This document shows positions 13,101-64,000 of a DNA stretch of 64,000 nt, one piece after another. Position numbers and translations under genes: made by a program. Position 1 is the first letter of the stretch; every line of letters starts with the position of its first letter. Source of the stretch: Takakia lepidozioides (lineage: Eukaryota > Plantae > Bryophyta); NCBI GenBank assembly GCA_030704615.1, contig CM060734.1, forward strand, positions 26,474,001 to 26,538,000. The letters are read 5' to 3'. The notes beneath the pieces are model-generated. The model searched no databases. It was not told where the DNA came from and saw only the letters and a list, made by a program, of their open reading frames with translations.

Positions 13101-14660
13101 AAATAGGTTTGCACTAGGGGTTTCTGGCACGTATGAAAATGTGTTTTCTTTTTTACTATTACTTAGGTGTATATGATGTTTTTTTAGTCCATATAGTTTT
13201 TCATGTGTAACACTGCAGTCATTAAAATTCAACTTTAAGAATCCATAGCTCTGTCTCTACACAGATCATGCATACATCCTTGCCTTGCTGCTAGCATCTG
13301 ACAATGACAGCCTAGATTTGTTCTAGCAAACACCCAACTCAACTAATTATCACATTAATTCATATGCTCAATTGCATCTACTACTCTCTGTATTCGAATA
13401 GGCATTCACCTTTTTGCCTCCACCATTGACTGGGGTCAGAAAAGTATTCAAAGACTATGAAAGGAGACAATAGGCCCAAGGATTATGGGAAGCTGGAGAT
13501 AAATACAAGGTTGATGATGCTGAAAAGTAGTAAAAAACAACCATGGTATCTCATTGGGAAGGGCCTTATGATTTTATAGGATACAAGGACACTAACACTA
13601 CATCAAGGACATGAGAGGCAGGACGTCGATGTAAGTTGAAGGATGGAGCAGGAAAAAAGTGGGTAAGAAGCAGGCGTGATCTGAAGCTATTTGTACCAAT
13701 GATAAATGCTCAGCCTGCAGACATGGTCAGGAACCTGACACTTAAAAACGGAGACACACTACATATGTAGTGTGAATGGGTGGGGGGTTTTACCACTCTC
13801 TAAAAATTATAATGTGAATAGTTGTTGTCTTTTCTTAACATTTCTCCATAGGTCTACCTTCAGTTTTGCTATGACCTGAATCTTCTCCCTGCCTCATCAT
13901 GGTTGTCATGCTTTCAACATAATCATCTAAGTCTGGAGCAGCAGTTAAAGTTGCTTTGTTTGTCCAGTCCCAGACCTGGCACCCTTCCTGTCAACACTTG
14001 GTAAGAAGAGTAGTTAGTAGAAGCCTGCACACCCCCTCTGTAACCAAGCAAGGATATGTAAAGGTTTTGATCCCACTCAGTTTCACTCCCCACTCCCAAA
14101 GTTGTTATACTTTGAGCTTGAATGATTTTATCACTTGTTCGACCATCCCATTGCTTTGGGGCCAGTAAGGGGCATTGTGCTCCCTTCTGATTCCAAATGT
14201 ACAACATACATCCTCAAACTCTCCTTCCACTTAGTGCCATTGTCTGTGAGTATATAGTATGTGGACATCCATACCTACTAATGACCTCTTCCACCAGAAA
14301 ACGAGTCGTGGTTCCTGCCGTGTGATCAACAACAGGGGTTGCCTCCACCCACTTGGAGTAATGGTCAATTGCAACCAAAAAGTACCGGTTTCCTCTTGTT
14401 GTGACCGGGGGTGGTCCAGCTGTATCCAATGCAACTCTGTAAAACAAATCTACCAAAAGGATTCTCTGAAGTTTGGCGATTCCTGATCGTAGCACTCCCT
14501 TATCATTGGTAAATTGGCACTGCATGCACCCTTTTAGTACCCTTCCCAGCTGCATGGTCCTATTGTGCCAAAAGAACCGTCTGCATAGTTCTTCTTGTGT
14601 TCTTCTGATGCCAAAATGGGCAGTGGCTTCATGCAATTCCCTTATAATGCCCTCTCTTTC

Positions 14661-14747
14661 ATAGGGCCCACCCCTAAAAAGGGGCAGTAGCCGCAAGAAG
14701 AAGTGGCTCTTAGTTACGCCGGCCTCGACCAGAGTCTTCTCTCTCTC
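14661..14747 (+). mobile_element. 87-bp 5'-truncated retroposed insertion (3' tail of the Dualen-like LINE)
   Basis: Flanked by 13-bp TSD tgccctctctttc (14648-14660 and 14748-14760), similar to 23298-23381, ends in (CT)n. Confidence 0.85.
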
Positions 14748-16054
14748 TGCCCTCTCTTTCTCTTTTTGGTGACCTACAAGCTTCCCTTCAAAGAACACTT
14801 CTCCCTTAGAGTATGAGTACTGACTAGCTGCACGCTGTGTAGCCCGTCTACTCTCCTTCTCTATTAGGCAATCATTTGGATCTCCAAAACAGAGTACATG
14901 CATGGCTTCTATAGCATCAAGTATATCAGATGCCCTTTCTTCCTTACCAGCTGTTGTCTCCTGGTTGTCAGTGATCTGATTCCTCCCCCCACCTTTCAGC
15001 TGCATGTAGTAATGACATCTGAATAGCCTTAGTGGATGTAGTACTCCAATTTTGCCAGCCTTATTTGATCATGTCCTCATGAAGTGGACCTTTCTCTTAC
15101 TGAGACGTGTCCTCAGAGTCTGAGAGGTAGATAGTTCTAACAGAGCACCCACCTCTTGTGTCACTCTCAAGTGAGACTTCTGCCGAATGAGGTTGCTGGT
15201 TGTGTTCCTTTTCTTCCTCATTTTCATCATGTTGAAGGGACAATGTCTCCTCAGAGCTCCCTTCTTCATGTTGTGACTGCTCATCCTGGTGAGTGTGTGA
15301 TGCTTCCCCTTCTTCTGGTTCATGTCTCCGCCTCTAAGATCCTCGGGTGGTCACCACATGAATAGTGGGACATGAAAGCATCACAGTTGTTTCTCCCTTG
15401 ATATTGGTTGCAGCAACAACTTCCTTTTCTGCAACCACATTGTTACCCATTTTCCCCCCAAGCATATTGACAAACCCTGCCTGGCCATTGCTGGCACCTT
15501 GGACCATGGCTGCGAAGGTCACATTTTTCTCCACAATGTTAGGCATGAGTCCTGGCACTGGCCCCCTTTTCAGTATGCCATTAGCATATCCCCTGGTCAT
15601 CAGACTCCTTGTGGCACAACTATCTACCCTAGGGATGAACTCAAATGAAAAGTCACCCAGTAAATATGTACCACTATGGTATTCTGAACACAACCACCAA
15701 TATGGGTCTAACTCGGTTTCCAAAGAGAAATGACTTCCCAGCAGTCTGTCCTTGAAATGCCAGAATCCCCACACACATGCATAGTACTCTTCCCTCTTGC
15801 AGACCATCTCTCATCTCTCAGTGTTGTACCCGACCTATCTACGGGCGTGTTCTCTCAATTTTTTCTTGCTCTCTTCATACTGAAACAATAAAGCTATTAT
15901 GGCACCTCTGTCCCATTCCAGTTTAAGAAGAGAGACCCTATCCATCTTTCTCTCATCTCTTTTTTGACTGTAGAGAGAAGTGGAATATACCTCAAGATCC
16001 TCAGTTTCTTCTGCTGGACCCATTGGATACCTGCTCAGAGCATCCACGTTAGCG

Positions 16055-21826: not shown

Positions 21827-24800
21827 TTATGCTGCAACCTCTTGAGCAGTCCCTGCCTGCTCAGTCAGTGACAAGGCCTCAGCCTGCCCTATCATCCCTT
21901 CTTTAAGGTCTTCCTCAGCCCGAGAAAAATCCCCAACCTCACCCATCACCCTAGCCGCCTTGGCTGCTAACTCCCTCTGAACCTCAAGCACCTCCCATGT
22001 ATGCCATGGATGTCTGCACCCCGTGATCCTCACCTGCTCGCCCCCACTCACTGCCTGTACCGTCTCGGTAGGCAAGGAGACTGTTAAGGGAAGTATGGTG
22101 ACTGAAGATGACCGCAGTCTACACTGCTTAGCCATACTCAGGCTAATAATCCAGGTTAAGCAATTGAGATCCATTGTTTGCCCCAACACCTGACGACGTG
22201 ATGCCTCAGAAAGAAATGGCACCGCCGTGGTACCAGTGGAGAAACCCATTGCCCGCTCACGCTCGGCAGCATTGGGCTCCAGTAACTGTTGCAACTTGAT
22301 ATCCCACAAGAGGATACGTCCACCATCTCGGAAAGCATGAGATCCTGGAAAGTTGAGAAGTGTAGGCAATGCTGCTTGTGGGTGACCCACCTTATTGACC
22401 ACTAGCAAAGGTGACCGGTCATCGTGTCTCACACGCTGAGACTGCCTCCCCATATCCAAAATGCTATCCACCGTGAGGTTTGGTGGCCGCTACACCCCAT
22501 CAAATGCACACTTGAGCAGTGTGGGTGGCATCAAGTTGGACCACCATAGTTGTGGGCGATGAATCCGTGATCCCACTGCAGCTGCATCTAGCAACACTGC
22601 TGACCCAAGGCAAGACCGCACTTGATGTACACTGGCCATCACCTTGGCCTGAGAATCACCCATCAATGGCACATTCTCTAAGATGTATGCTGGAGAGTCC
22701 GCCTATTGAAGTTGTAAATAACGCAAGATCCTCAATGTTGGTACCTACCAAGGCCGAATCCCTGACCACACTGTCCCTCACTGGATCCTTCCGTGTATTT
22801 GTCCTCATTCACCCTGTACATGTCCCTCTCGGCTCTGCCCGGATATTTTACTTGTCCAAGGCTTACCCATCAATGCCCCCCTATCCACTTCCCCTTCCCC
22901 AAAACTAACCATTCACATACTGTCATGACCGATACCCAGCCCCCTCCACCCTAGAGAAACGACAAAAATATGCCCCCCTCATCCTCGCCATCCGCCAGGG
23001 TGGGTGGCGCACCAGCCCCCTATCAGTTATCACAGCCGGTACTAGAGGTGGGATTCATACCGCCAGTATAAACGCGTTACACGACAATCTGAAAATCCCT
23101 ATCCCCCCGATCCACAAATGCTTTAAAGCTATCCACCTCACTGCGCTTCGCTTCCGCACTGCCATCATCACCAATAAGCGACAACTCGAGTCCAACCCCT
23201 CTGCAGTACCCCAGGGTACCCCAGGCACCCCAGGCACCGCTACCCTATTTACTACCTCCCCCTGGTTACTCTGTGTCCCCTGGGCACCTGTTTTTTTTAT
23301 AGGGCCCACCCCCGAAAGGGGGCAGTAGCCGTAAGGCAAAGTGGCTCTTAGTTACGCCGGCTTTGGCCGGAGTCTTCTCTCGGAGGATCCTCAACATCTC
23401 CCAAAACAAGCGCGACCTTGAGTCTTGCAATCCATTTCCATGTCTGGCCAATGAATGTCCTTGGCAGGGCCATCCTGCCACTAACAAATGAACGGGGCCC
23501 ACTCGCTCCAAATCTTGCGCCCCCATCAAAGAAATGTCTGCTGGCAATGCTCGCTGGTATCCACGCACTGCAGATACCGGCAACAAGTCAGGGTACTGCT
23601 GCACCAGCTGAGCAACATGGCCCAGTGAGACGCGTCGTGTAGTCTCATCCCTCTCCACGTATCGGTAATGCTGCACTCGTATACCTGCCTGTAGCACAGC
23701 AGCCAAACCAATGCGGATCCCGCTAAACAAGTCCAGAAGGTAGATGTCTTCATCCGGGTACTGCCACACAATAGATGTGGTGTCCAATGGCGACAACTGA
23801 GGTGGTTCTGGTGCAATCACCGCACTCTCCTCCTCTCATGACGGTACAAAAGCCTCTACCCAGGCTTATTGCACTCGTCGATCAGCAGCCCGCTGCAAAT
23901 CCTTGCTTGTGCCCTACATTAATGGAGTATGAGCAACCATGGCAGACAACTCCGTTGTACCATGCATGTCATCATGCTCTGTTGGAGGTGGCATATCCTC
24001 TGCACGAGTATTGCCTTCCATCAACTCTCCAAGCAAAGTAACTACAGCTGTGAAGGCTGTTGGTGTCGGCATCTTGCCCCGTTGGGCAACTGCAACTCTC
24101 CCAATGAATGCCACAGAGAGTTGCACATGACGGCCATCCCCTGACTGCCATCCAGGCCTATAGGAGGCGGACTCCTCCCAAAAATCCAGGTGAAGCCCAT
24201 GGGGTATAATACTGCCCCACCAACCAACACATCATATGAAACTGCATCCGTCACAATGGCCTTGGCTCGCATAACTGAGATGAGAACAAGGCTCCATGTT
24301 CACCTCTGTAAGCCTCAAACCTGCAATAGCAGCTCTACCCAGCATAAATGGCTGAGCTCCCGAGTCCAGCAATACTCGTAGTGGTCAAAACCTCCTGCCC
24401 GTCGACCCACTCAAATAGAAAACACCATCCTGGTTATCCAACAAAACAACTCTAGGTGTTACCATAGCGCGCTCAATGGCTGGCCTAGCTGGTAGCTCCG
24501 TCAATCTGGCAGCTGCAGCTTGCCATGGCGCAGCCGTGGCAGTCTTGACCCTCAACTCCTCTGACACAACACCTTCCACTAGCTCCGCATAGGATGAAGT
24601 GATCTCCCCACTCTCACAGAGTGTTGCTGCTAGTATGAACACTGCAGCAGATCGTACCCCCGGCGTTGCAATCATGGTCGCCGAGAACAATGGGGCCTAA
24701 CATACAGATATGGCCGCCCCCAGCAGCACACTGGTTGCACTAGCCTTGACAACAGGTATTGGTGCTACCCGTGTGGCTCTCCCCAATGGCACGCTAACCT

Positions 24801-25156: not shown

Positions 25157-25510
25157 CACTATTGCAAAAAGGGGGATTTATTGACGGCAGCCGCGCCCCC
25201 ACGCCCCGTGCGACGCCAGCACCATGGCACCGATTTGCGACGCTGGGGTGTGGCAAGGTGGCGCCCCGGCGCTGCTTGTGACGCCGTCGCGTTGCAACCC
25301 AGCGCCGGGGCCATCCTGCGACGCCGAGACGTGGCAAGGTGGCCTCAAGGGCAAGAGGTAGCCCTTTCTTGCCATGCCTGGCCGTCGCAAAGGGGGGCGG
25401 CCCCACTTGCCACGCTCGGGCGTGGCAAGGTGGCTTGAAGGGGGAAAAGGCCTCTGCAACGGCCGGGCGTGGCAAGGGGGTATTGCGACGGGTTTTTTTG
25501 GCTTTAGGGT
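25157..25510 (+). mobile_element. CACTA terminus with GC-rich subterminal repeats
   Basis: cactattgcaaaaaggggg begins exactly where Gypsy copy 2 stops; gtggcaagg/ttgccacg repeats follow. Confidence 0.7.
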
Positions 25511-25669
25511 CAGGGAGAGGGGGTGGGGACGGGGGATGGGACTCTTGGGGGGGGGGGGGGGCACCTCTCTGTTTTTCTTTCTTTGCCCCCCCTCTCTCTC
25601 TCCCTCTCTCTCTTGGTTGTTAATAGATTTGTTTGCAAGATGGCTGTCACATTCAACATTTTCAAGGAC

Positions 25670-26240
25670 TTCCACTAATGGGAAGATGCTGACTAGTATT
25701 GTGAAGTCAGTGTTTTGGGTCAGCTCAAAAACACAAACATCTCTTCCTACCTTGGGAGGGCAGCATCGAGACCGCGATCCCCGCGCGACCTCCGAGCCGC
25801 CGCCGCCGCAGGTATGCTCCACGCCTCTGCTTGCTGCCCTTTCGTTTCTTCCCTCTTTCCCTCCCCCACTCTTCTCTCCACAAGCTTTTGGCCCGGCGGT
25901 GATACCAATCCTACAGAGCCATGAATTCACCCCAGTATGGATCCAAAGATACTCCCTAGGTGGTGGAGTTACCTGCCTTCGTTTGCCAAACTTATCAAAC
26001 ACTTGAACAGTAAAATTAGAGTATGAAACGAGAGTGAAGACAAGTTGGTCTCCGATTTTGAGGTCGAGGTTGAATGCAAACTCCCTCCACCTGCCAATCA
26101 CGAAACAACATTCGCTCATACTACGTCTACTTGGGGGACTGGGCCATATCCTCGAACTCATCCCCGCTACTTGTTGAGGCTGATGACTCCGAGGTGCCAT
26201 GGCCAGACCGACCATGCGCCTGAGCACCTGAAACATCTGT
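25670..26240 (-). pseudogene. B3 DNA-binding domain (REM-like) gene fragments
   Basis: GRWREFAFNLDLKIGDQLVFTLVSYSNFTVQVFDKFG, and a second B3 C-terminal piece RDVCVFELTQNTDFTILVSIF. Confidence 0.7.
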
Positions 26241-27449
26241 CACTCCCACAGAGCTCTGGTACAATCCCATTTCATCCCCCACCTCATCAAAACTAATGTC
26301 CTATGTTGTACTCCCCACTATGTGGGTCATGGTATTCATGAGCCTATGCCAACCATGCTCCTTGGTGTACGCGAACTCCACCAAAGATGGCCCATGAGCA
26401 TTGGGGTAATATCTCCATATCAGGTGGAGATTGTTAAGCAGTGCCTGAAAAAGCAGACGCACTTCAGATAGTCCTGGATTAGGATTGGAACTCATTGATG
26501 TGCAGGTCAAATCAATTGATGGCTTCCAGGGGAGGAAAAAAATATCATCATATTTTCTGTTGTCCGAGCAAATAGAGCTAGCAACATAGGCTTCTTGGAC
26601 AATGAACGCAGGCTAAATGTTGCATTGACTCATGGCAGGTGTTTACATTTCTACACCCTGATTTGTCCCCTTCCCAACTGTCTGCCCCCATTAGAGGTTT
26701 CATAAAGCTTCCCTTTTCCTAGTGGTTGTTATCTTGCATGTGAGCTTAGCGACTAAGCAAGGCTGGAGATAGAGTACGATGACAGTAGATGCTGTAGAGA
26801 CTAATGACTGAGCAAATGAAGGTGAACAGTCAAACATGGCAAGGCCAAGGGTTAGGCCTTTGGATAGCAAGCAGCAAATACCAAGGGGTATTCTCAGAGC
26901 AAGGGAATCCTCAAAGGAGGATCTGATGTGAGTGTTTGGGGAGGGAGCCACACAAGCCTGTTCTTGATAAGCAAGACTAAGAGCATAGCATGCTATGGTA
27001 CTCCTTGGCAAGTAGCAAGATGAGGATTCAACCATCACATCACCGCATTCACTAAAGGCATGAACAGAATCAAGACACAAGGAACAAACAAGGAATTTTG
27101 TGACAAGACCCCACCTCTCTGTTTTTCTTTCCTTGCCCTCTCTCATTCTCTCTCCCTCTCTTTTGTGCTACTCACCAAAAACAAAAAAAAACCAGAATTT
27201 GTAGATTGTGACCTTCATCGAGACCATGATGCACATGTGATGGGTGTAATTTTTTGGATATCCCATTAACATATGTGATTTACATAGCGTAAAGTCTTGG
27301 TGCCAATTTGCATCACTTGCTCCAGTTGCACGTTGTTGCTTTTGTGGGAGTCGTTTGACACAACCACCTAAGTCGTAACAGTTGTAACATCCATTTCAGG
27401 ATCCAGAGAGAGAGGGACACATGATTGCAAGACCATTGATTAATCATAG

Positions 27450-28112
27450 TGTCGTGCGCATACATATCGCTACACAACTACATCGTTGTCCAAAACCACA
27501 CAACACATGCGCACACCACACACTAGTATACCACTAGTCCAACCACTAGGTTGCCACTAGTCAGTCGCTAGGCTGCCCACTATGGCAGTCACTAGTCCAC
27601 CACAATGATAAAGAAGAAGAATACAAGCACAAGCTCATGCGAGCTCACAAAGCTGAAGCATAAACTCATGCATATATAAACTCATCACTCAAATACAAGT
27701 CAAGCCAAGTGCACCCCACGCCATGGGGAATCCACACTACGGCGCCATAGCTAGGCGCGGTGAGGCTCAACTCGAGAAAGATGAGCCTCCCGCACTTGCC
27801 GTGAAGATAACCACGCTAGGGCCTAAATCTGCCTTGACCCCTAGATTGATACTTTGGCCAATCCCAAATGTCAATATGTAAAAGCTAGCTATTTCCTAGC
27901 TAGTTTCACACTAGTGGTGAAATAACTTGACAGCTGTCGTGCGCATACATATCGCTACACAACTACATCGCTGTCCAAAACCACATAACACATGTGCATA
28001 CCACACACTAGTATATCACCAGTCTACCACTAGTCCAGCCACTAGTCCAACCACTAGGCTGTCACTAGTCAGTCGCTAGGCTGCCCACTATGGCAGTCAC
28101 TAGTCCACCACA
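27450..28112 (-). repeat. 3' terminal repeat block: A (27450-27604), B (27606-27932), gc, A (27935-28112)
   Basis: A (tgtcgtgcgcatac...ccaccaca) occurs twice; B matches 38247-38568. A short purine tract (sense AGGGGGG, 28117-28123) precedes the block. Confidence 0.92.
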
Positions 28113-28381
28113 ATTGCCCCCCTAGCTGGTGCTTAGGTCCCTCTAAGTCCAGGTAGCCACAAGATGTGATAGTGACCGTAGCCTCACTAAGTCCTCCACC
28201 ACTGTTCCTACTACACTCAAACTCGATAAATCAAGAGGCCAGGTGCAAGAGTTGCCCTATCGTTAGTCGTCGTCTTGCAACTTGTGAACTTGAACCTGGG
28301 ATCTCGTATATTGACTCCTATGAGTTTGGCCTCCTATGTCTTGTTAGCTGCCTCTAGTCATGTCCACTGCCACTATCCCAA

Positions 28382-29690
28382 GCAGTGTGGACACAACCAA
28401 TCTCCATCAGGAACCTTCTCAAGAGGTGGTGTCAAGCATCCCATGTGCCAACCTCTTGAGCATCAATCATACACCAGCATGGTGGCTGCCCCTTTGGCAG
28501 ACCCACAGAGCATGCACCTCAAACCTGCAGGTACCACTGCCAAGTTTGGGTCAACTCTGCCATCGACATTGGGAAGGTGACATGGCGCACAATTATGCAC
28601 ATGGTCTTTCCAAGTCATGCCATCCCAACCTTCCAAGATCAGGACTCCTGAGGGCAACACCTCTCGAACCCTCAGAATAACACACCCTGCAGTGACATCC
28701 AGGGTCGTAAGAGCAGTATGCTGCAAATAAACATAGTCACCAGGGCTAAACCTCCGAACCCCAGGACGATATCCTCCACCACGTATAGTGGCATACCTCA
28801 ACGTATCACGGTGCTGTGCAATGGCAAGGTTCTCAAAAGCCATGGGCATGACTTTCTTGAACAACTCTGCATGCTGATCACATGCACGTACCCACACGTG
28901 TGGATCGTCAAGGTTCAGGACTTGAGTAGTGTCCCTACAAATGGCTGCAGGCAAATCCGGCTCTCGGCCAAAGAGAAGGAAATATGGTGAGAAAGAGGCA
29001 AGTGATGCTTGTTTGCTGAACCTGTAGCCCATGGCTAACCAAGGCACCTGAAGATCCCAATCTCCTAGGTGTCCTTTCTGCAAGCCATACTTGCGTAAAC
29101 CCCTCTTCACCGTCTGAACAACTCTCTCTGCCAAGCCATCGGCCTCAGGATGATCCCGAGAAATGGTGGTGCGGTGGTCTATCAAGGCTTTATCACACAA
29201 AACCTGAAACTCCCCTAAGAACTCTCTCCCTTGGTCCGTGAGTACCTCAGCTGGAGCACCGAATCGGCTAAGCACACGATCCAAGAATGCATACGCAGCC
29301 CCCTCACTAGCCTTGTCAGGCAATGGAACCAACTCAATCCACTTGGAGAAGTGCTCCACCATCACCAACACATATCTGTGGTGGCGCATAGTCAGTGGCA
29401 AGGGTCCTGCGAAGTCAAGACTCCACCTGTAGCCCAATCCCATGATTGTTAAAGGATGCAACTGTGGTGTAGGGGCGTTGAATGAAGCATGCACCCTGTC
29501 ACACACCATGCATCTAGCCACGAAGTGTTGCACCTCTGCATGCATACCACGCCACCAATACTGCCCCTGCAGTAAACTGTGAGTGCGTCGCACTCCAAAA
29601 TGCCCCAACTCCTCATGGGCATGCTGCACTAACCGTGCACGCTGTGTTGGGTGAGGCACAATCCTCACCCGACCATCCTCCCACACTCGG
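28382..29690 (-). pseudogene. Gypsy DDE integrase with C-terminal PHD finger
   Basis: HHCC (HEELGH..CMVC); WSLDFAGP, LTDQGREF, GLAER; then CMLC..[32 protein letters not shown]. Confidence 0.93.
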
Positions 29691-29707
29691 AGTAGGTGTA
29701 TCCCCTC

Positions 29708-31498
29708 CTACTTGAACCTCTTGGCTCGTTGCAAGATCCGATCCCTCTCCCTGACAGTCACAGTGGCTACCGTGTCTCCAGTATGGAGGTAGTCCAACAC
29801 AGCCGAATCCTCATGTATATCTCTGGTACCACCTGGCTCATCACTAGCCTCAGGGTCCTCAGACACTCCGTCTATAGTCATCCCTGTTAGAGGTCCAACC
29901 TGACCTCCCGATGCCAAGATACACAAAAATGCATATGCGTGCCATCTCGGCACCATCTCCTCATCTGTCTCACTATGCCAGCGAGCTCCAATGTCATCCT
30001 GTTGGCTCATGCATGGATTGCGACTCAATCCATCCGCATCCCGATTGACCAAACCCGGTCGATGCACAACCTGAAAGTCATACTTCTGGAGTATGAGTGC
30101 CCACCGTGCAAGCTTCCCCGTAAGCTTGTCTGACTCCATCAACCACTTGAGTGGCTGGTGATCCGTGACAAGGGTCAAGAGATTGTCGTATAGATAGCAC
30201 CTGAAGCGTGCCACGGCCCACACTGCAGCTAAGCACTCTCCCTCATATGAGCTATACTTAGCCTCTGCAGTGTTGTTTGAGCGGCTAGCATAAGCCACTA
30301 CAAACTCTCTTCCCTCATCATCCACATGTGTGAGCACCGCTCCAAGCCCCAGCATGCTCCAATCCGTATGCAGGTGAAAGGGACGCCTCCTGATAGGTTG
30401 TCTCAGGATAGGCGCCGATGTCAACCTTGCCTTGAGCTCTTGAAAAGCTCCTTCCTGCTCATCTTCCCACTGCTACTCCTGGTCCACCTTGGTCAGCTTG
30501 GTTAGAGCCTTTTCAATGGCACTAAATCCCTTGACAAACCGTCTATAATAGTTTGCCAACCCCATGAAAGCTCGAACTCAGCTCACATCCGTGGGGCGTG
30601 GAATTTGTGCAATGGCCTCAACCTTAGTCTGTTGTACCCCCAATCCTCCAGGATATATCATGTGACCCAGATACTCAATCTGGTTGTGGAAAAACTTGCA
30701 CTTCCCCGGATGCAACTTCAATCCGTGCGCTCTTAAGCGCTCCAATACCACCTGAAGGTGTCTCTCATGCTCCTCCACCGTAGCACTAAAGATGATGATG
30801 TCATCTATGTAGCACCGAGCAAAGTCCACCCCTGCTAGAATCCTATCCATGACTCTCTGAAACTCTGCAGGAGCGTTCTTAAGCCCAAATGGTAAGAACT
30901 GCCACTGATATAGGCAATCCTTGCCATGCTCATTGATCCCCCAGAATGCTGTTTTCTGCTTGTCCACCTCCTTGATCGGCAACTGGTGATATCCGGATCG
31001 TAAATCCAAAGTGCTAAAGACCTTAGCATGCCCGATGGCATCAAAGATCTCCTCTGGTGTTGGCATGGCATACTTATCAGACTTGGTCTGACAATTTACA
31101 GGCCGGTAATTACCGCACATACGTCTCTCCGTCCAATTGCCATAGACATCCTTCTTGGCTGGCATCACTGTGGCTGAAGCATACTCTCCACCAGAGAGCT
31201 CCACCAAACCAGCCTCCCAGAGATCTTGAGTCCTCATTTGAATCAAAGACCTCTCCATGTCACTGTATCTATAGGGTCTCCGAAAGATTGGCGTGTCAGT
31301 AGCCAACTCAATATGAATCTCTTGACCCTTCAGTGCTCCTAAGTCCTTCAAACTGAAGGCAAAGCAATTCCTGTAAGCCCTCAGGAACCGCCGTATACGT
31401 TGTCTCTCTCCTCCGGTGACAATGGGTCCAGTGTCAGGCTCCCAATTGTCCTCCGTAACTGAAACCTTAAGTCCAGTGGGCTTAGAGGTAGAGAGCCG
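29708..31498 (-). pseudogene. Gypsy reverse transcriptase and RNase H
   Basis: LDLRSGYHQ, LPFGLKNAP, YIDD; HTDWSMLGLGAVL, YSSYEGECLAAVW, TDHQPL. A few in-frame stops. Confidence 0.96.
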
Positions 31499-31819
31499 CT
31501 ATGTTGCAACCTCTTGAGCAGTACTCCCTACCTGCTCAGTCAATGACAAGGCCTCATCCTGCCCCATCATCTCATCCTCGAGGACTTCCTCAACCCGAGA
31601 AAAATCCCCAACCTCATCCATCACCGCCACCTTGGCTGCCAACTCCCTCTGAACCTCGAGCACCTCCCACGTGTGCCATGGATGTCTGCACCCCGTGGTC
31701 CTCTCATGCTCACCCCCACTCACTGCCTGTACTGTCTTGGTAGGCAGAGAGACCATCGAGGGAAGTGTACTCCGCACTCTGCGTTGCTCAGCCATAGCCG
31801 CTGATGATAATCCAGGTCA

Positions 31820-32750
31820 AGCAATTGAGATCCATTGCTTGCCCCCAACATCTGACGATGTGATGCCTCAGAAAGAGATGACACCATCGTGGTACCAGTG
31901 ATAAAACCCATTGCTTGCTCACGCTCGTCAGCATTAGGCTCCACTAACTGCTGCAACTGAGCATCCCACAGGAGGCCAGGTCCACTATCCCCGAAAACAT
32001 GCGATCTTGGGAAGCTGAGCAGTGTAGGTAATGCTGCTCGTGGTTGACCCACCTTGTTGACCACTGCCAAAGGCGAACGGTCATTGTGTCTCACACGCTG
32101 AGACTGCCTCCTTGTGTCCAAAATGCTATCCACTGTGAGGTGTGTTGGCCGCTGCACCCCATCAAATGCACGCTTGAGCAGTGCGTGTGGCATCAAGTTA
32201 GTCCACCATAGCCATGGACGATGAGCCCGTGATCCCACTGTAGCTGCATCTAGCAACACTGCTGACCCAAGCCACGACCGGACTTGATGCACACTGGCCA
32301 TCACCCTGGCCCGAGAATCGCCCATCACTGGCACATTCTCCAAGATGTATGCTGGAGATACAGCCTGATGAAGCTGCAAGTGGCGCAAAACCCGCACCAT
32401 CTCCCAAAACAGACCCGACCTCGAGTCTCGCAATCCATTGCCATGCCCGGCTGATGAATGCCCTTGGCAGGGCCATCTTGCCACTACCAGATCAGTGGAG
32501 CCAACCCACTCCAAATCCTGCGCCCCCAGCAACGAAATGTCTGCTGGCAAGGCCTGTTGATATCCATGAACTGCAGACACCGACAACAACTCAGGGTACT
32601 GCTGCACCAACTGAGCAACATGACAAAGTAAAATGCGTCGTGCAGTCTCATCCGTCTCCACATACAGGTAACGCCGAACTCGTACACCTGCTTGTAACAC
32701 AACAGCCAATCCAGTGCTGATCCCGCCAAACAAGTCCAGAAGACAAATGC
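31820..32750 (-). pseudogene. DNMT3-like C5 cytosine methyltransferase domain inside the retroelement polyprotein
   Basis: Motifs in canonical order: I LLDLFGGISTG; II VETD; IV DLVVARWPCQ; VI ILENV; VIII AHRPWLWWTN; IX EREQAMGF; X RQMLGQAMD (after a 1-nt frameshift near 31842). Confidence 0.92.
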
Positions 32751-33149
32751 CTTCATCCAGATATTACCACACAATAGGTGTGGTATCCAATGGTGACAAC
32801 TGAGGTGGTCCTGGTGCAATCCCCGTACTCTTATCCTCTCCTGATGGTACAAAAGCCTCCACCCAGGCTTGTTGCACCCGTCGATCAGCAACCCGCTGCA
32901 AATCCTTGCTCGTGCCCCACAATGAAGTATGAGCAACCATGGCAGACAACTCCGCCATATCATACATGTCATCCTGCTCTCCTGGAGGTGTGTCATCCTT
33001 TGAATGAGCGTTGCCCTCTAGCAACTTTCCAGGCCAAGTCACTGCAGCTGTGAATGCTGCTAGTGTCGGCATCTTGCCCCGCTGGGCAACCGCAACTCCT
33101 CCTATGAACGTCACAGGGAGCTGCACACGCCGGCCCTCCCCTGACTGCC

Positions 33150-33500
33150 ATCCAGGCCTATAGGAAGCTGACTCATCCCAAAAATCCAGGGTGAAGCCCA
33201 TGGGGTACAATACTGCCCTACCAACCAGGACATCATACGAGACCGCGTCTGTCACAATGGCCTTGGCTCGCATCACTGAGCCATCTATAGGGTGATCCGG
33301 CCGTAGTCTGATAGCCAACTCATGCCGTGTCATGCCCCGAGCCTGCTCCAATCCTCCCAGAGACGTCTATATCTGGAAAAGACAAGGCTCCATATCCGCC
33401 TCCGTGAGGCCCAAGCTTGCAAATAGCAGCTCTGCCCGCATCAATGGCTGAGCTCCCGAGTCCAACAAGACCCGCAATGGCCGGTACCTCTTGCCTGCCG
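33150..33500 (-). pseudogene. Retropepsin aspartic protease
   Basis: RVLLDSGAQ catalytic motif and the C-terminal YDVLVGR motif. Confidence 0.8.
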
Positions 33501-33859
33501 GTCCACTCAAATAGAAAATGTCATCTTGGTTGTCTAACATGACAACTCCAGGTGTCACCATGGCGCGTACAATAGCTGGCCTAGCTAGTAGCTCCATCAA
33601 CCTGGCAGCTGCAGCTTGCCATGGTGCCGCCGTGGCAGTCTTGACCCTCAAATCCGAGGATCCCTCTGGCACTACACCTCCACTATCTCCGCAGAAGATG
33701 AAGTAACCTCCACTCTCACAGAGTGTAGCTGCCAGCCTGAACGCCTCAGCTGGTCTTACCCCCTGCGTCGCAAATCATGGTAGCCAGAACAATGGAGCTG
33801 ACACACAAATGTAGCCACTCCCAGCAGCACACTAGTTGCCGTAGCCTTGGAAACACTAG

Positions 33860-35657
33860 GTAGTGGTACTGCCCGTGTAGCTCTCCCCCAATGGCATAGT
33901 AACCTCCACCTCGGTAACAGTCGGGCGAGAACTAGGTGCCATGGATGGCGTCGACACTGTCTCCGCCAATGTGAATGACTCAGGAAGCCTAGCCTGACGG
34001 CTTGCCTCCCCACGCTGTGGATCCAACTCCACCTCTGCACCTCGTGGCTCAGGAACTCGTGCTGCTCCTCGAGTCACGGCTGCAGCAGACTCCACCTGCA
34101 CTAGTGGTAGTGTTGCTCCGCACATGAATCCCATGCCTTCCATATCTCCTCCCTCAGGAGCAGGAGGTGGACCATCCGGCCTTGGAGCCGGTACCACCTG
34201 AGCTGTAGCCATGGCAGCGAGCCTCTGCTCTAGCTGCTGAAGCCGGTTGGCCATGCTTTGGTCAACACCCTGACCTCCGCGTCCTTGGTCATGTTGAGCT
34301 TGCCCTTGGCCTACACCCCATGCCTGGCCACCTCGTCCTCTCTGGGCTGATCACCTCGCCCCCGGCCACCATTGTTCCCTCTTGGAACTGGCCTGGGCGC
34401 AACTCAGGATGCAAACCATAACACTGGGCCTCTCCATGCTCGTGCTTGCCACAATGCCCACACTTGCAACTGTGCAGGCTGTGCATATGCGGCCCTTTGC
34501 CTCCTCTGGGCAATCCTTGTTGACATGGGGTCCTCCACATGTCCAACACACCACCTCCGCCCGTTGTTGGCCTGCAAATGAAGGGAGAGACCCTGCATCT
34601 AAGGTCCTCTCTGTCCTTCCCTGGGCTTCACCTGGACCCCCTTGTTGCCTTGAGCACGTTGAGGTAGTGGTTGGCTAGGAGCACAACTACCCCGTGGTGT
34701 CTCCTTAGGTCTCCTTAGCAAATCCCACCATGACCACTCATTCCTCCACCATGTTGAGCTCTATCCGCTCTGCCAACAAAAACACATTTGTTAAAGTGGG
34801 TTGGGCCGATTGTAGGAGAGTTGCATCCCGCACCCTTCTCCTCAGCTCCTTGTCCATATCCCATACCAAATTGGACTGCCTGAGCTTTCGTAACCCCTTG
34901 GGTTACATTTATCAGCGCCTCATGCGAGTGAAAGCCTCCCTCAAGCTCTCAGTAGCCTTCCGTTGAAACTCTTGCAAGCTTCGCAACTTCTCTGTCCTCA
35001 CCCCTTGGTAGTTCCCTCTCAACTCTTCGAAGAACTCCACAACAGGGTTGAAGGCAGACACGGGTATTAGTGCTGGTGCGGTAGTGGCTTGGGTGGACGT
35101 CGTAGCTACTGTACCACTAGTCCCACTGCTGCTTGCTGAAGCTGCCGGTACAGCGACAGGTGTAGCCAATGCCCTCGTGGCTCTAGTGCCCCTAGTGATG
35201 GAGACATAGTCGGGTGACCAGTACATCCTCCACTCCTCGATCTCATCCTCATGCCCCTGCCTGAACTCATGTTAATCATCCATAGGCGGCCCCTCAAGGT
35301 GCTGAACAGCCCCTTCCATGCCATGAAAGGCGTAAATAGTTGTGGATTGCGCATTTGCTGCAAATCACACCAACTATCAAACTCTTGGATAAAATCATCC
35401 AACTCGATGGTGCCCACCACCTCAAAGTACCTTCGTGGCCCCTTGGTAGCTCCATACATCTCCTCCATTGTGTCCCACAACAATGGCAAGGAAACAACTT
35501 GCACCGCCGGTGTGAGTCCTCCTGATTCACAATCCGAATCAGAACCTTCCGTAGAAGACACATGAGGTGAAGGTGGCCTAAACCGCACACCTCGTCTCGT
35601 GTACCCACTAATATCGCTAGTGCTCGAACCAGCACTGTCCCCAACAACTAGTGGCAC
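33860..35657 (-). pseudogene. Gag with zinc knuckles
   Basis: QRKATESLREAFTRMRR (major-homology-region-like); CWTCGGPHVNKDC and CGHCGKHEHGEAQC knuckles; frameshifted. Confidence 0.8.
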
Positions 35658-36399
35658 CTCCGTGTTGACAAACTGTCACTCAACCGGTCATGAACATGTC
35701 CCTAACCCCCTCTCCACAAGGTAACCGGGTAGAGAACCTATTGCGGCTTATGGTTTGGAATACTAGGTTCCTAACATAGCCTACACTTGCACCTGCATCC
35801 ATCGCAAGCACTCCTATGGTTGGCTGGTCATCACCTCCAACCTCACCACAGGAGAAACAATGATGGTCTGACTGGTCATCACCCCCCAGCCTCACCATCG
35901 ACAGCATGCTCTAGGATTGGCTGGTGATCAAATCCGGACCAATCCCTATAAAACAAGCGCCCACACAAAACTAACATGGCGCACAGTCAAGCATGCAGGT
36001 ATGGAGGGGATCCAAACACAAGAAATCAGAACGACAACTCTCCCACACCAAAAAAAACTCCACGGTGTTGCTCCTGCAAGGACACCCCAGCCCCAACCCG
36101 ACTGACTCTTGCCTCCACCTACGGAAAGGTCTTGGCCTAATGAGAGGGTGGAAAACTACGAGGAAGAGAAGCTAAAGCAACGCCTAACCCCAGCATGCCC
36201 TCATCCCAACACTCTTCCTCTCCTCTCTTCCCTCACTTGCATGACCATGGGAATATCATGAAAATACTCCTCAAACCGCCCTCCACGAGCATCAAAATTC
36301 GGCCTTCAAGACCACATGCCAGTCCTTAGGCAGTCCACCAGTGCCTCCACGAGTCAGCATAGGCCGTCCATAGGTCAACACGGGCCACCAAAGACCAGC

Positions 36400-36700
36400 A
36401 CAGGCCCACACAGATCACTGGTCACAGCCATCACAGCCCCAAATGCCACAGCCTGTCACAGCCCATCACAACCCCAAAGGCCACATGGCACAGCCTATCA
36501 CAGCCCCTCACAGCCCATCACAGCCTGTCACAGTCCGTCACAGCCCCACAGGCCACAGGTCACAGCCTGTCACAGCCCTACACAGGTCACAGGATCACAG
36601 CCCCACAGGCCACAGCCTGTCACAGTCCGTCACAGCCCTACACAGGTCACAGGGTCACAGCCCCACAGGCCATAGCCCATCACAGCCTGTCACACAGCCC
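36400..36700. repeat. CACAG-based minisatellite in the retroelement leader
   Basis: Dozens of cacagcc/cacagg units. Confidence 0.85.
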
Positions 36701-38246
36701 CCCCTCCATGGCCACTCATGGCAGTTTCGCCATTTCTCCAAGGGGTTTAGCCACGCCAAGCTAGGGTTTGTGTCTCTTGGACTCTAGGCTTCTTTGCACC
36801 GAGCTATGGCGGCTATGAGGAAATCAACAAGTATTCTTGCTCTTATGGCCCCTACACACCACCAATAGTAGCTCTAATTCCAAAGGAAGATGTTTGCAAC
36901 CGAAACTAAGTGCACAAGCTTCCTTTTAACTCACAAAACAGCGCCATTGATCCCTATGGTGACTAACCAAACATGGCTGACTTCCAGCCCTTGTAGGCAC
37001 TCATTCACGTGCTTTTCTTGACCATAGCATGCCCTTCGCACCTAATCCAGCCCCTGCACCTACTGCTTCAAGAGTTGTGCTCCCTTCAAGCTTGAAGTTG
37101 AAACCCCAACTCACATAGACCCTACAAGTGCTTTTATTTCACCCCAAGTGGAAACCAGCCCTAGCCCTTCCGTTCTAGCTCTCTAAAGCTTGAAAACAAG
37201 AGCCTCAATGGGCTGAAGGCATGCTCCACACATGCCCCACTCTCACCATAAGAGAATCAGCTCATTTGCTTCATTTCTTGCACCCACAAACCTAAAAATA
37301 TAAGCTTCAGCGGGCTGAAAACATGCTCTACACATGCCCTACAGGGAAACCTGCCCCTTCCTTCCTTTCTTGCACTCCCAAACCTGAAAGTACAAGCCTT
37401 CAACAGGCTGAAAGCATGCTCCACACATGCATTGCCCTCACATAAGGGAAGTCAGCCCTTCCCTCTTCCTTGCTTGCCCTCCAAGCTTGAAGATGGAAGC
37501 TTTAATGAGCTGAATACATACTCCACACATGCAACCTCTTCACACAAAATGTATCAGCCCCCTATCTTGGCTCCTTGGCTCCTTGATGCTCTCTAAGGCA
37601 AGACTAAGCACTCCACAGCCTTTGCCAAGCTCCTGAAACCCTAAGGCTTACATTTCCAGCCACAAGACCCTCCTCTTGTGGTGCAAGAGCTCTTCTTCCA
37701 AGCTCTGAAACCCTAGGTGCACATTCCATGGCCTTGCCGCACCTCTTAGCTCCTGTTCCAGCCCTGCTCTTGCCATGACAAGAGCCCTCTCAATGCTGAA
37801 GCTCGAGATTGAAACCCAATCTCAACATACTCCACAAAGTGCACTGATTTGCCCCAAGCCAAATCAGCCATTTCGCTTGGTCTTGCAATCGTTCACACAA
37901 TGAAAGCTCACATTCCCAAGTCTAGTTCTCAGCTTTGCCACCAAAGCCACTTTAACTTACTCTTGACTGGTCCTCTTCCCTATCGTGCTTGCTCATGCAT
38001 GTACACAATCTGAAACCATCAAGGTGCTCTGGAATTACCTGCAGCATGGTGCTTTCATCTCTGAAGCTGAAGATCGAATGCCAAGGTCTCTACCTCGTAA
38101 CCCACATCGCCTCCGCTTCTAACAACCAAGAGCTCAACGGTGCTCCTTGCATAACAACCTGGTTTCTCTCATTCTCAAGCAAAAACCACAAGTGCTACAA
38201 CTAAGTCGTATCTGGCACTTACAGATACGAGCTCATCTTTCTCGAG

Positions 38247-38568
38247 TGATAAAGAAGAAGAATACAAGCACAAGCTCATGCGAGCTCACAAAGCTGAAGC
38301 ATAAACTCCTGCATATATAAACTCATCACTCAAATACAAGTCAAGCCGTGGAATCGTGGAATCCACACTACAGCGCCATAGCTAGGCGCGGTGAGGCTCA
38401 ACTCGAGAAAGATGAGCCTCCCGCACTTGCCGTGAAGATCGAAATAACCACTCCAGGGCCTAAATCTGCCTTAACCCCTGGATTGACACTTGGGCCAATC
38501 CCAATGTCAATATGTAAAAGCTAGCTATTTCCTAGCTAGTTTCACACTAGTGATGAAATAACTTGACA
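38247..38568 (-). repeat. 5' terminal repeat (segment B only)
   Basis: Near-identical to 27606-27932. Confidence 0.93.
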
Positions 38569-39299
38569 ATAGAAATAAGCTACAATATGCATGTATATGT
38601 ACAATCAATCGAAGGGATGGGTACAGTTCGGTGCGAGAATTATTATGTAGCTTTGATTACATGTCTAATCAACTTGAACATCATCATCCGGAGCTTTTTC
38701 ATCCTCATCAAGCTGCTCAAGTCTTCTTGGTCATCGGGAGTCATCGTCATAAATGGCCCGGCCTCAAAAGGCCCTCCGAATCATCCCTCACTCGTTGTCA
38801 ATGGACTCCGACTCCGAATCATCCTCCACCTCGTTGTCAATGGCCGTGTCTTCTCTCTTGTCAACATCCGTATCTTTTGGAGCTTCTCATATAGGATCCG
38901 GGTGCATTCTCCGGGGCGTCATCATCCTCTTCTACCCCCTCTACCCAACCTCCATCATCAGCATCATTATGACAGTCCGCCCTCCACCGCAATTGCATCC
39001 CGTGGAGATCCGAGACCATGATAGATATGTCTTCATCTTGGCTGAGCAGGCACAACCACCTTCCAATTTCCCCCTCTTGTTTTGTCATCGGAGAATAAAA
39101 CTTGCTGCATGTCCGGTTGTATGAGGTCGTGAATTGAGAGGGGCCCCTTGCAAGGTCTGGCACCATATCTGAAACCACCTCACCTTGAGAAACGGTATCA
39201 TAAATGAAGTCTTGAGGCCACATGTGGAAATGAACTTAGAGGCTGCAATTCCACGGGCAAAATCTTGTGAATGAACATTCCGGCGGCCCGCTCCACGTT

Positions 39300-47700: not shown

Positions 47701-49669
47701 CTCACTGCTGCTATCACTGTCACTGTCATCGTCATCATAGTTCGGTACTTGAACAACGGTGGGGGCGGCGTCTCGCCCACGGCTCCCACCTAATGTACTT
47801 GGGTTGTTTTACGGATACGTACAAATGAACATACGGGCATATATTATAATGTGTCATTGTAGTCATACAACTTATTATAAGCGAAAAGCAAACAACAACC
47901 TTCAATGTGTGTGTGCATGCATCAAATATGTCATTCAATAATTACATGTATGTGCGCAACGTCAGCATGCAAAGTTTCAAACCCAAACAAAATCATTTGC
48001 CCCCCAAAGGACGCGTTCACCCTATCAACCAATTTTTGTTTATTAATGTGAAAGAAAATCCTCTCATGTCATTGCACCCATCAAACGGATATGGCTCAAG
48101 CTTCATTTTTTCCCACATGTGCTTAAATGTATGTGCAACACCTGTGCAAAGATCCAGCAGGAAAAAAAAAAAAAAAAACAAAAACATTTGCCTTCCCAAC
48201 GACGCACTCACCCTTGAACCAATTTTGAATTAAAATCGAATTTAAAATGAATATTTGCATTTAGAAAATATAGGATTGCGGTTTTGAGGGGCGTAATGAT
48301 TTTATTTTTGGCTCTATTTTGTTTTGTGACATTGGGGTTTGCACCACTACATCCATGCAAAAAAAATTGGACAAAAAAAGAATGGAAAAGAAAATGTGTG
48401 TTTCTAGGGTCACTTTTGCAAAACTCTCTGTAAAGATTGCATGAAGTTGAAGATAACTCAACTTTGGAGTGCAAATGAGAGAACAAAATATGGTTCTAGG
48501 TCCAAATGACTTTTGTTTACTCCCAATTTTTGCACACACATTGCATATGTTGTCATTAAGCATATGGCTTGAAAATGGAATTAAAAGAAAATCATGTGCC
48601 GTCTCTACAACACGTAGCTGCGTTCAACACTAGAATGACCCATTGAATGAACTTGGTTCAAGCTCATATTTGGTCCACATGTGCATAAGTATGTTCAGAT
48701 CACATATGCAATGTTGCAACCCACACGAGCAACAAGAAAATATTTACATCAATCGATTAATTGGATTTATACAAAGTACATCATGAGAATATCTTCAATG
48801 CCTCTCTACGCGATCCCTGTCTCAAAGGAACCGTATTTCTATCATACACATCCCACTCATGCTGTAACCGGAGGGTCTGTATTTTCCATGAGCGATGAGC
48901 AGACGAGCCATGAGCCATGAGCCATGAGCAGAGTTTCGAACCTACACCGAAGCAAACCCAAAGCCAGATTCCAGGTTCGGAATAGGCTAGGGATATAAGC
49001 AAAGTTGAAGGATCAAAGTTATATTCCTAAATAGAAAGTGTACCACCTATACCCACGCGGGCCAAACGGAAAATATACAGCCGCAAGTCTGTGCCGACTT
49101 CTCAAAAAATATTTTATATTTAAAAAAAAACTGAAAATTGGGAAGCCGGAAGTCTATGCCGACTTCACATATAATATAATATAATATAATATTTAAAAGT
49201 CTGTGCCAACTTCTCAAAATATAATATAAAACTGTAAATGAGGAAGCCGGAAGTCTGTGCCGACTTCTCCAAAAACAATAAAAATAAAACGGAAAGTAGG
49301 CAACCGCAAGTCTGTGCCGACTTCTAAAAAAAAAGGTACCGACGCCCAAATATAGGGAATTCCCGAACCTAGCTTTGCATCCGAACCTAACCTAATTGTT
49401 CTATGATGAGGCACTTGTAACACTGAAAAACTAGTTCGGATGGTCGAAAACCTGGAAATATTCGCAGAAATATGCGAAAAAGATCTCAATAGGAGACAAC
49501 CCCCGTCCACGTACATCCTGTCCATTGACACACAAAATATAGGGTAGGATGTATGGGGCTTCGAGGGATAATGTACGGAACTCCTCGGAGGTGTAGTATG
49601 GACCGTAGTAGGGGAACAAATCCACCGTGTTGTTTCTCCGAGGAGTGATGGAGATACAATTAATCTTGA

Positions 49670-49782
49670 GACTGCCCTTGTTGACATGTATGCCAAATGT
49701 GGGAGCATGAAGGATGCCCATCAGGTTTTTGACAACATGGCTCAGCAAAATGTGGTGTCATGGAGTGCGATGATTGCAGGAA
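49670..49782 (+). pseudogene. Isolated PPR fragment
   Basis: ALVDMYAKCGSMKDAHQVFDNMAQQNVVSWSAMIAG. Confidence 0.8.
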
Positions 49783-50244
49783 GTGGAGCAGAAGCGAACC
49801 AAAATCATTTGGATGGGCATCCATCCGTTGGCCCATCAAACAAATTTCGTTTTATCTCATATTACATTGGAACCCGTCTTATGGTATGTTGAACATACTG
49901 GCAAAGTTTGAAAGCAAATCAAACTCATCTGGATGGGCAACCGTCCGTTGGGCCATTGAACGAATTTCGATTGATGTCATATTCGTACGAGACCTTTGAG
50001 ACGGCGTACCGAACATACTGACAAAGTTTGAAAGAAAACAAAAATCATTCAGATGGCCAACCATCCGTTGTCCAATCGAATGAATTTCGTTTCACCTCGT
50101 ATGACTCCTGGACCTGTTGGGATAAGCCACACGGTGGCAATGGCAATTGGAGATCGAAGGGAGGGCCTTCGCACGCCAGGGCGGCACCCGGTGCTCCAAA
50201 AGGAAAAATAGGTGCGATGGCACATGGCGGGCAGAATGCGACCT

Positions 50245-50310
50245 TTGATGGGGGTGTACTTTAATTGCGGTGAGATTAGGCACATGGCCAAAAAGTGCCC
50301 GAAACCGACA
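50245..50310 (+). pseudogene. Degenerate CCHC zinc-knuckle fragment
   Basis: YFNCGEIRHMAKKCP, with the first Cys replaced. Confidence 0.5.
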
Positions 50311-50484
50311 GTTAAACATGACAACGACGACCACGGAGATTTCCGAAGACTCCATCAACCGCTTGGTGGAGGTAGTGGCCGTCGTTTCATTTTTTTTTTA
50401 AAACGAAAAAGAGAGATAGCCATAGGGCAATTGATTCATTTTTTTTAAAAAAATTAAAAAAGAAATTTAAAAATAAAAACGTAA

Positions 50485-52432: not shown

Positions 52433-52847
52433 TAGATGACACTGGACACTTGGGCCAATGGCACAGGCTACCCTAGTCTCCTTAGGCCCCGGCCGCACTG
52501 GTGGCTAACTAGCCACTGCTAGCCACTCTTAGTTAGCCACTATTAAACAGTGGTTAGTTAGCCCGGGATAATGTGCAGCCGCACTTATGGCTAAAAGTTA
52601 GCAATGGCTAACGAAGGTGATAAAGCAGCTCGTGGATAGAGCATGGCGTGCAGCTCGCGGGATAACCTTCGTTAGTCATTGCTAACTTTTAGCCATAAGT
52701 GCGGCTGCTCATCCCGGGCTAACTAACCACTGCTTAATAGTGGCTAACTAAGAGTGGCTAGTAGTGGCTAGTTAGCCACCAGTGCGGCCGGGGCCTAAGG
52801 AGATTAGGGTAGCCTGTGCCATTGGCCCAAGTGTCCAGTGTCATCTA
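52433..52847. repeat. Fold-back inverted repeat, arms about 185 bp
   Basis: 52433-52618 is the near-perfect reverse complement of 52665-52847. Confidence 0.92.
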
Positions 52848-63800: not shown

Positions 63801-64000
63801 TCTCCCCTCACTTCCTCTCCACACAACTTATGTGCGCCCGCCATTATTGGCGGTCGCTTTTGTTTTTTATTTATTTTTAAATAGAACGACGGCCATTACT
63901 GGCGGTTGCTTGTATATTTTTAATTTCTGAAAATGCTGCGTCCGCCAGTTATGGCGGTCGCTTTTATTTTAAATTTTTTTAAATAGAACGACCGCCGTGG
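60887..64000. repeat. Second palindromic GCGACCGCC array, with an ACGT-rich terminus and about 482-bp higher-order repeats
   Basis: Dozens of hairpin units; a distinctive block recurs near 62285, 62768, 63251 and 63733. Confidence 0.9.

Follow-up and report, generated by a model that had tools for sequence, protein, structure and literature searches.

Gypsy retrotransposons that carry a DNMT3-type DNA methyltransferase have been known since KnitGypsy-Dnmt3 was described from Klebsormidium nitens (de Mendoza et al. 2018, PMC5890265). According to the accessible part of that paper, the element contains an intronless, unpermuted DNMT3 within its Gypsy Pol region, the domain evolves under purifying selection, and the repeats follow the DIRS-like order A-coding-B-A-B. 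The same part of the text has the methyltransferase acquired within the K. nitens lineage, names no land-plant member, and is silent on the length of the duplication, on an internal palindrome, on self-priming, on a PHD finger and on how the element integrates. In the available portions of later works the element is cited under 'streptophytes' (PMC12344493; bioRxiv 10.64898/2026.05.21.726589: 'streptophytes (Gypsy-DNMT3)'). SymbioDIRS-Dnmt3, as far as the accessible text of PMC5890265 goes, likewise has a DNMT3 in Pol and A-coding-B-A-B repeats, and its enzyme methylates CG de novo in yeast; however, it is a DIRS element with a tyrosine recombinase. EpiLTRs and DAM-LTRs, in the available part of their description (bioRxiv 10.64898/2026.05.21.726589), are Gypsy-type elements that encode a chromatin reader along with DNA methyltransferases of their own, but their DNMT is sister to DNMT4, occurs with DAM and a chromodomain, and is located at the 3' end of pol. 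Self-priming Gypsy elements of the Tf1/sushi type and Tcn1 have a primer site complementary to their own LTR (PMC6317226), and Gypsy-7a_cRei of Chlamydomonas has a PHD finger in its polyprotein (PMC9940879), but in the portions of these sources available to us they have ordinary two-LTR ends and no methyltransferase is described for them.

Here we analyse an 11,119-bp Gypsy element in a stretch of DNA of 64,000 nucleotides (the window). Its repeats have the order reported for KnitGypsy-Dnmt3, the two elements being likened by description and not by sequence or domain order, while a DDE integrase and a 4-bp target-site duplication set it apart from SymbioDIRS-Dnmt3. Since the Gypsy-DNMT3 kind has been known from Klebsormidium since 2018, land plants extend its range, and we regard the element as a land-plant-type member of this known kind, whose structure points to a non-standard route of integration. 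An earlier sequence-only reading of the window had not been aware of methyltransferases as a standard feature of land-plant LTR elements. In the mainly open-access papers and preprint main texts that we searched, neither bryophyte members nor the route of integration were described, and the accessible parts of 10.1101/363937, PMC9406493, PMC9940879 and PMC6453930 contain no land-plant description; nonetheless, KnitGypsy-Dnmt3 is a precedent for a Gypsy-DNMT3 with the same repeat layout, and the novelty is correspondingly lower. That reading did not cover the splitting of the ends, the self-priming or the PHD finger. Our main reading, to which we give a probability of about 60%, is that the copy in the window is a dead member of an old family of Gypsy elements with a conserved DNMT3-like methyltransferase that likely acts on the element's own cDNA, and with an integrase that likely cuts a palindrome in the LTR.

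The element and its methyltransferase domain

The domains follow each other on the minus strand in the order gag, protease, methyltransferase, reverse transcriptase (RT), RNase H, integrase and PHD finger (Table 1). The gag-PR-RT-RH-IN order and the DDE integrase are those of Ty3/Gypsy elements, as are the primer-binding site (PBS), the polypurine tract, the TG...CA ends and the short target-site duplication; on the other hand, two complete identical LTRs are not present at the ends, the unit B-GC-A having been found at none of 22 distinct 5' ends. Scans of the window and of 23 relatives detected no chromodomain, the C-terminus of the integrase being a PHD finger instead, and no tyrosine recombinase, the enzyme that marks a DIRS element, was detected in the scanned ORFs. 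Pfam gave no protease match in the window copy itself.

Table 1. Positions of the features of the element and of a second family copy in the window
Feature	Position	Strand	Evidence
Complete Gypsy element, 11,119 bp, TG...CA ends	27450..38568	-	Empty-site joint
4-bp target-site duplication, element 3' end	27446..27449	.	
4-bp target-site duplication, element 5' end	38569..38572	.	4 ambiguous letters at empty-site joint
5' repeat A, 322 bp, TGTC...CA; downstream part of true LTR	38247..38568	-	
16 nt in A complementary to PBS; putative transcript 5' end and self-primer	38402..38417	-	Shuffle test
PBS, self-priming type, directly after 5' A	38231..38246	-	
gag region, CCHC-like motif, broken	34300..35675	-	Weak Retrotrans_gag E 0.066; Marchantia P0123 alignment
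Aspartic protease region (LLDSGAQP) and linker, broken	32767..33800	-	Asp_protease matches in relatives P0200, P0201, P0166
DNMT3-like C5 cytosine methyltransferase domain, dead in window copy	31797..32763	-	Pfam, PDB profile, fold search
Reverse transcriptase	30581..31498	-	RVT_1 1.1e-32
RNase H	29711..30472	-	RT_RNaseH 9.4e-34
DDE integrase, H2C2 zinc finger and core	28511..29707	-	Integrase_H2C2 8.7e-16, rve 4.1e-13
PHD finger, integrase C-terminus, broken by one stop	28373..28510	-	Pfam PHD 1.1e-6 on second half
Polypurine tract plus spacer, immediately upstream of inner B	28113..28126	-	Same tract in metagenome loci
Inner repeat B (TGTGG...GACA); upstream part of true LTR	27935..28112	-	
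Palindromic B/A junction GACA-GC-TGTC; putative internal integrase attachment site	27929..27938	.	Identical in L005 and L064
3' repeat A	27606..27932	-	Differs from 5' A at 16/315 positions
One-base joint x, A to outer B; putative join of original cDNA ends	27605..27605	-	
Outer repeat B	27450..27604	-	Versus inner B: 6/156 positions differ, plus 23-bp indel
Second, truncated family copy with same methyltransferase, 78-84% identity	21825..25156	-	Pfam DNA_methylase 2.7e-10

The sequence-only reading had listed a full, ordered set of C5-methyltransferase motifs. All of them lie within one stop-free frame of the minus strand, 32763-31843: LLDLFGGISTG starts at about 32742, WPCQ is at 32475 with its Cys at about 32469, ENV is at about 32340, AHRPWLWWTN at about 32226 and EREQAMGF at about 31926, and RQMLG ends at 31843. 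The domain matches Pfam DNA_methylase with E = 4.6e-10 and 39.9 bits against a cut-off of 22, so the set stands and the HMM search proposed as a check on it gave the expected hit. When the PDB was searched with a profile of 21 homologues, DNMT3A ranked first (8e-21), followed by DNMT3B/C (about 1e-19 to 1e-15), DRM (5e-11 to 4e-9) and DNMT2/HhaI (1e-6 or weaker). A fold search also placed DNMT3A/B at the top, the model used being mediocre (pLDDT 63) and the support from it weak. The motif order is unpermuted, and by sequence the domain is a DNMT3-like C5 cytosine methyltransferase, as had been claimed, rather than one with the permuted order of DRM.

The domain is intronless and lies inside Pol, unlike the host plant DNMT3 gene, which is defined in the accessible part of PMC6453930 as multi-exon with a C-terminal DUF3444; a Pfam scan of the ORFs adjoining the window methyltransferase gave no match to DUF3444. 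Its suggested position between protease and RT, in the polyprotein frame apart from lesions, agrees both with the order of the Pfam matches and with a tblastn alignment of the Marchantia protein P0123, which forms a single HSP in one frame from gag through the methyltransferase (35343-31810) and is interrupted by 14 stops. The window copy of the element and its methyltransferase are dead: in addition to the stops throughout, one of which lies directly upstream of the domain (32764-66), there is a frameshift near 31843, ahead of motif X, and conserved positions are substituted in motifs IV and VIII, with the Cys and ENV retained.

Several further features of the window may be recorded. The long 5' leader of the element contains short tandem-like repeats (36399-36694 and 37150-37533). 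The methyltransferase of the second copy is split by a 654-bp insertion (22735-23388), which shares 87 bp (86%) with 14657-14743 of another integrase-bearing element (14217-15068). An ORF beside the element (25178-26239), with a match to the B3 DNA-binding domain below the Pfam cut-off (3.6e-6), is possibly cargo of the repeat into which the element inserted. Other retroelement fragments occur at 3910-4701 (RNase H match, 1.2e-6) and at 59814-60734 (LINE-like by eye, no convincing Pfam match). Decayed, repeated PPR-coding fragments are found at 8252-10190 and about 2000-2240, and those at 8252-8701 match Pfam PPR, with 50% identity to the best named match. AT-rich tandem arrays at 49600-52000 and 61000-64000 consist of units of about 50 bp, each with a short GC-rich inverted core, and show a higher-order period of about 483 bp; an inverted repeat of 137 bp, 98% complementary and with arms 141 bp apart, is located at 52433-52847.

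Spread of the domain and selection on it

A protein search with the methyltransferase returned 170 homologues of nearly its length and 29 longer ones, those with names coming from Calypogeia, Marchantia, Sphagnum and Riccia and reaching 70% identity. The Marchantia, Calypogeia and Sphagnum homologues are about 60-70% identical to the window domain, which nests among liverwort and moss elements in a tree of element-borne domains; the long branch of the second window copy in this tree is a frameshift artefact and was disregarded. A land plant is the likely host. The window domain stands at 64-66% from the domains named after these three genera alike, and the host of the window is accordingly another lineage. 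Metagenome loci were fetched by methyltransferase patterns, and the best 80 of 115 confirmed loci were analysed; 79 of the 80 are nearest to Sphagnum-named domains (median 81%), and RT and protease are each present in 62 of these loci fetched by their methyltransferase. Motif counts in the loci are partly circular, since the patterns include catalytic motifs. Contigs cover all bins of the element, the methyltransferase included, and coverage falls off at 27450; the depth of contigs does not give a copy number, and the domains were not ranked by it. No relative of the element was found among the viral contigs searched, nor was any RNA data set listed as containing it, which tells nothing about its expression.

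Comparison of the window with the peat-moss-type loci gave dN/dS values, at dS near saturation, of 0.13 for the methyltransferase (n=52), 0.06 for RT (n=37), 0.08 for RNase H (n=37) and 0.08 for integrase (n=24). Among close, decayed copies the ratio is 0.63 for the methyltransferase versus 0.42 for RT, for variants shared among close copies 0.60 versus 0.32, and for the methyltransferase of the two dead window copies 0.40. These figures indicate that the methyltransferase is constrained, but less than RT. One could imagine that the domain was captured once from a host gene and has since evolved neutrally, an outcome that the sequence-only reading itself had named as fatal to its proposal; however, the domain is common to liverworts, moss and algae, and its dN/dS of about 0.13 against peat-moss-type copies speaks of constraint. 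The comparisons of sequences thus support the view that the methyltransferase is a family feature conserved under selection, and we see hardly any chance for a one-off capture.

On a wider scale, a profile search with the methyltransferase yielded 456 representatives at E up to 1e-30. Two domain orders were found among the proteins, one with the methyltransferase before RT and one reading RT-RH-MTase-IN-PHD (30 complete examples); named members from Closterium have the former and those from Scenedesmus the latter, and both are more distant from the window domain. No Klebsormidium name appeared among the named matches or the 30 proteins looked up, although Closterium relatives are present, and the accessible parts of the literature examined make no mention of chlorophyte members. 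In a large class of open Gypsy polyproteins (P0145, P0192, P0197, P0249 and others), the same DNMT3-like domain follows RNase H and precedes the integrase, and a PHD finger is present as well; one member is named from Scenedesmus, and motif IV often reads EC instead of PC. In trees of 51 elements, which took in element-borne domains only, the 8 pre-RT elements form one clade by methyltransferase as well as by RT (support 0.99), and the patristic distances of the two domains correlate at 0.63. Judging from the domain orders, the DNMT3-like domain has changed position between element classes.

Split repeats and a proposed route of integration

Within its 4-bp duplication the element reads A-internal-B-GC-A-x-B, where x is a single base (Table 1). 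An empty site was found in contigs of runs X1 and X2, which represent one sample that may be the source of the window: they join 27445 to 38569, skipping 11,123 bases, with 4 ambiguous letters, although this joint may correspond to the other allele or to another copy of the flanking repeat. As reported for the self-priming elements of the Tf1/sushi type (PMC6317226, accessible part), the PBS pairs with the element's own repeat: it is complementary to A over 16 nt, compared to a mean of 4.4 and a maximum of 9 after shuffling. In the peat-moss-type loci a different sequence keeps the pairing, with at least 9 nt in 12 of 20 and the site about 30 nt after a TATA box; altogether, the complement reaches at least 9 nt in 13 of 21 copies and is shorter or absent in 8. 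Taken together, the polypurine tract before the inner B and the self-priming PBS imply that the LTR made by RT is B-GC-A.

Prior to the counting of ends, duplicates of one insertion were dropped (L048=L047, L062=L064, L072=L071, L051=L050, L039=L040, L075=L044, L073~L049, L077~L028), as were partial A matches (L036, L052, L053, L057) and L038, whose contig ends; an opposite-strand B in L010 and L013 was left out. This B (L010 6209-6320, L013 6219-6330) lies upstream of gag without a matching A and is perhaps a separate insertion. All 22 distinct 5' ends start at A and none is preceded by B, whereas 7 of 21 informative 3' ends either continue past B with A or terminate in A-x-B, the other 14 stopping at B. 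The mirror form, A-x-B-GC-A-internal-B, is accordingly missing (0/22 versus 7/21, Fisher p=0.004). A target-site duplication of 4 bp flanks all 11 complete elements (8 perfect, 3 with one mismatch), whose ends lie at the conserved palindrome GACA|GC|TGTC.

The two internal joints differ in character. The B/A junction GACA-GC-TGTC is precise: exact in the window, L005 and L064, with 1-2 changes in L031 and L041 and a deletion across it in L040, and its palindrome is common to the window and the peat-moss-type loci, even though the repeats are otherwise dissimilar. The A/B joint, on the other hand, varies (1, 2, 2, about 27 and 17 nt in five elements), and in L050 it begins with 9 nt of the PBS. 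In 4 of 4 cases a tree placed both A copies of an element within one small clade (with weak support, and with another copy included in two of the clades). The two Bs of L031 have 3 rare variants in common, a number that was equalled or exceeded in 3 of 207 background pairs; L064 has 1 such variant and L041 none. Divergence between the Bs within elements (6-9%) overlaps the range between copies (4.5-12.5%).

Elements of the DIRS type have the layout A-coding-B-A-B (PMC5890265, accessible part), and one might ascribe the split repeats to the insertion of a DIRS-like circle through a tyrosine recombinase, or to chance nesting of solo repeats. Both ideas are opposed by the DDE integrase, the TG...CA ends and the 4-bp duplication in 11 elements, as well as by the lack of a recombinase match in the scanned ORFs and the recurrence of the same layout in independent insertions in another host. 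We regard them, together with the one-off capture discussed above, as largely refuted and extremely improbable.

Instead, we consider it quite probable that the integrase cuts a palindrome inside the LTR rather than using the ends of the cDNA. The 4-bp duplications, the empty site, the absence of B before the 5' ends, the precise B/A junction and the variable A/B joint with a remnant of the PBS all argue for internal cutting. According to this scheme, the transcript would prime itself as in Tf1, and RT would make a linear cDNA with B-GC-A at both ends. The methyltransferase, packaged and then released by the protease, would methylate cytosines of the cDNA de novo, so that the element would enter the genome already marked. 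The integrase would cleave GACA^GCTGTC after each CA, leaving normal recessed ends, i.e. by our analysis the ordinary processed ends of an integrase substrate. The ragged original ends would be joined, either in a 2-LTR circle before insertion or by gap repair after it, giving the variable A-x-B joint. In its integrated form the cDNA would then be closed at its original ends and opened within the 5' LTR. A-internal-B copies could be due to a 1-LTR circle, to two cuts or to B-B recombination at a later stage. A biochemical parallel exists in foamy virus, whose integrase cleaves the palindromic LTR junction of the 2-LTR circle after CA in vitro, on both strands and with 2-nt overhangs (PMC1180852, accessible part). 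In foamy virus, however, the joining of the cDNA ends creates the palindrome, and its cleavage brings back the normal linear form; in the window element the palindrome belongs to the LTR itself, in whose middle it lies, and cleavage would yield a permuted element. A simple circle model, furthermore, predicts the mirror form equally often, in conflict with the counts of ends. Its absence may be due to A-A recombination or to protection of one junction, with the methyltransferase as a possible candidate for the protecting agent.

Possible roles of the methyltransferase

We lean towards the view that the methyltransferase methylates the element's own new cDNA de novo, its place in Pol and the activity demonstrated for SymbioDIRS-Dnmt3 making this the most likely role. 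The sequence-only reading had suggested that the element may methylate its cDNA or its insertion site, which is plausible. CpG depletion as a trace of methylation was uninformative, with no extra loss in the element (o/e 0.44, compared to 0.46 and 0.76 in the flanks).

A more specific task would be to guard one of the two palindromes. If methylation fell on GACAGCTGTC or next to it, it could block the integrase at the 3' junction, so that only the replication-competent form A-internal-B-A-B would be made. This sequence holds CAG/CTG and a neighbouring CG, the junction is conserved in comparison with peat-moss-type loci whose repeats are otherwise dissimilar, the two LTRs would presumably be hemimethylated on opposite strands after strand transfer, and the missing mirror form would be accounted for. 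Nevertheless, the mirror form could also be lost independently of methylation, by recombination between the A repeats, which are the longer ones, and the guarding would have to be leaky to explain the 3' ends that stop at B, which makes this role unlikely.

Pol products act mainly in the particle and in the pre-integration complex. This speaks against the idea that the enzyme works after integration, in concert with the PHD finger, and targets either the new copy or the chromatin that flanks it, damping the element or keeping the site heterochromatic. The occurrence of the PHD finger on the integrase of the window element and of 22 of the 80 loci, as well as the description of moss DNMT3s as DNA methyltransferases distinct from DRM (PMC6453930, accessible part), would fit such a role, but we find it rather doubtful.

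It is also conceivable that the domain has been retained as a non-catalytic module that binds DNA or SAM. The PC of motif IV is present in only 20 of the 51 tree members, EC being common, the methyltransferase is under weaker constraint than RT, and the Klebsormidium Gypsy DNMT3 produced no methylation in yeast, a result that its authors call inconclusive (PMC5890265, accessible part). On the other hand, the catalytic Cys is kept in 51 of 51 members (8/8 and 43/43) and so is EN, while AHR and ERE are largely kept over the distances from chlorophytes to land plants. We therefore judge a purely non-catalytic role improbable, and prefer methylation of the cDNA.

In the boldest version of our reading, which we put forward as a speculation with a small chance of being correct, a Gypsy clade spanning the green lineage (chlorophytes, Zygnematophyceae, liverworts, mosses and the host of the window) would have replaced end-processing by cleavage of the LTR palindrome, and its own DNMT3 would mark the cDNA so that only one of the two palindromes is cut. 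If true, the marking of the cDNA combined with the cut at a single palindrome would amount to a control of retrotransposon integration that resembles restriction-modification. The internal-palindrome route, if it is true, would by itself provide an LTR element whose normal integration departs from the textbook scheme.

For the study of bryophyte genomes the family has practical consequences. It inflates the counts of DNMT3 in bryophyte annotations. Since its members do not end in two equal LTRs, structure-based LTR finders, which are behind the plant reference classification (PMC6317226, accessible part), would overlook them or set their limits wrongly. The role of DNA methyltransferases borne by retrotransposons has been a standing question since 2018, and the known Gypsy case is from an alga with few tools. 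The gene models of Marchantia polymorpha contain homologues, and this moves the question to a genetic model with methylation mutants.
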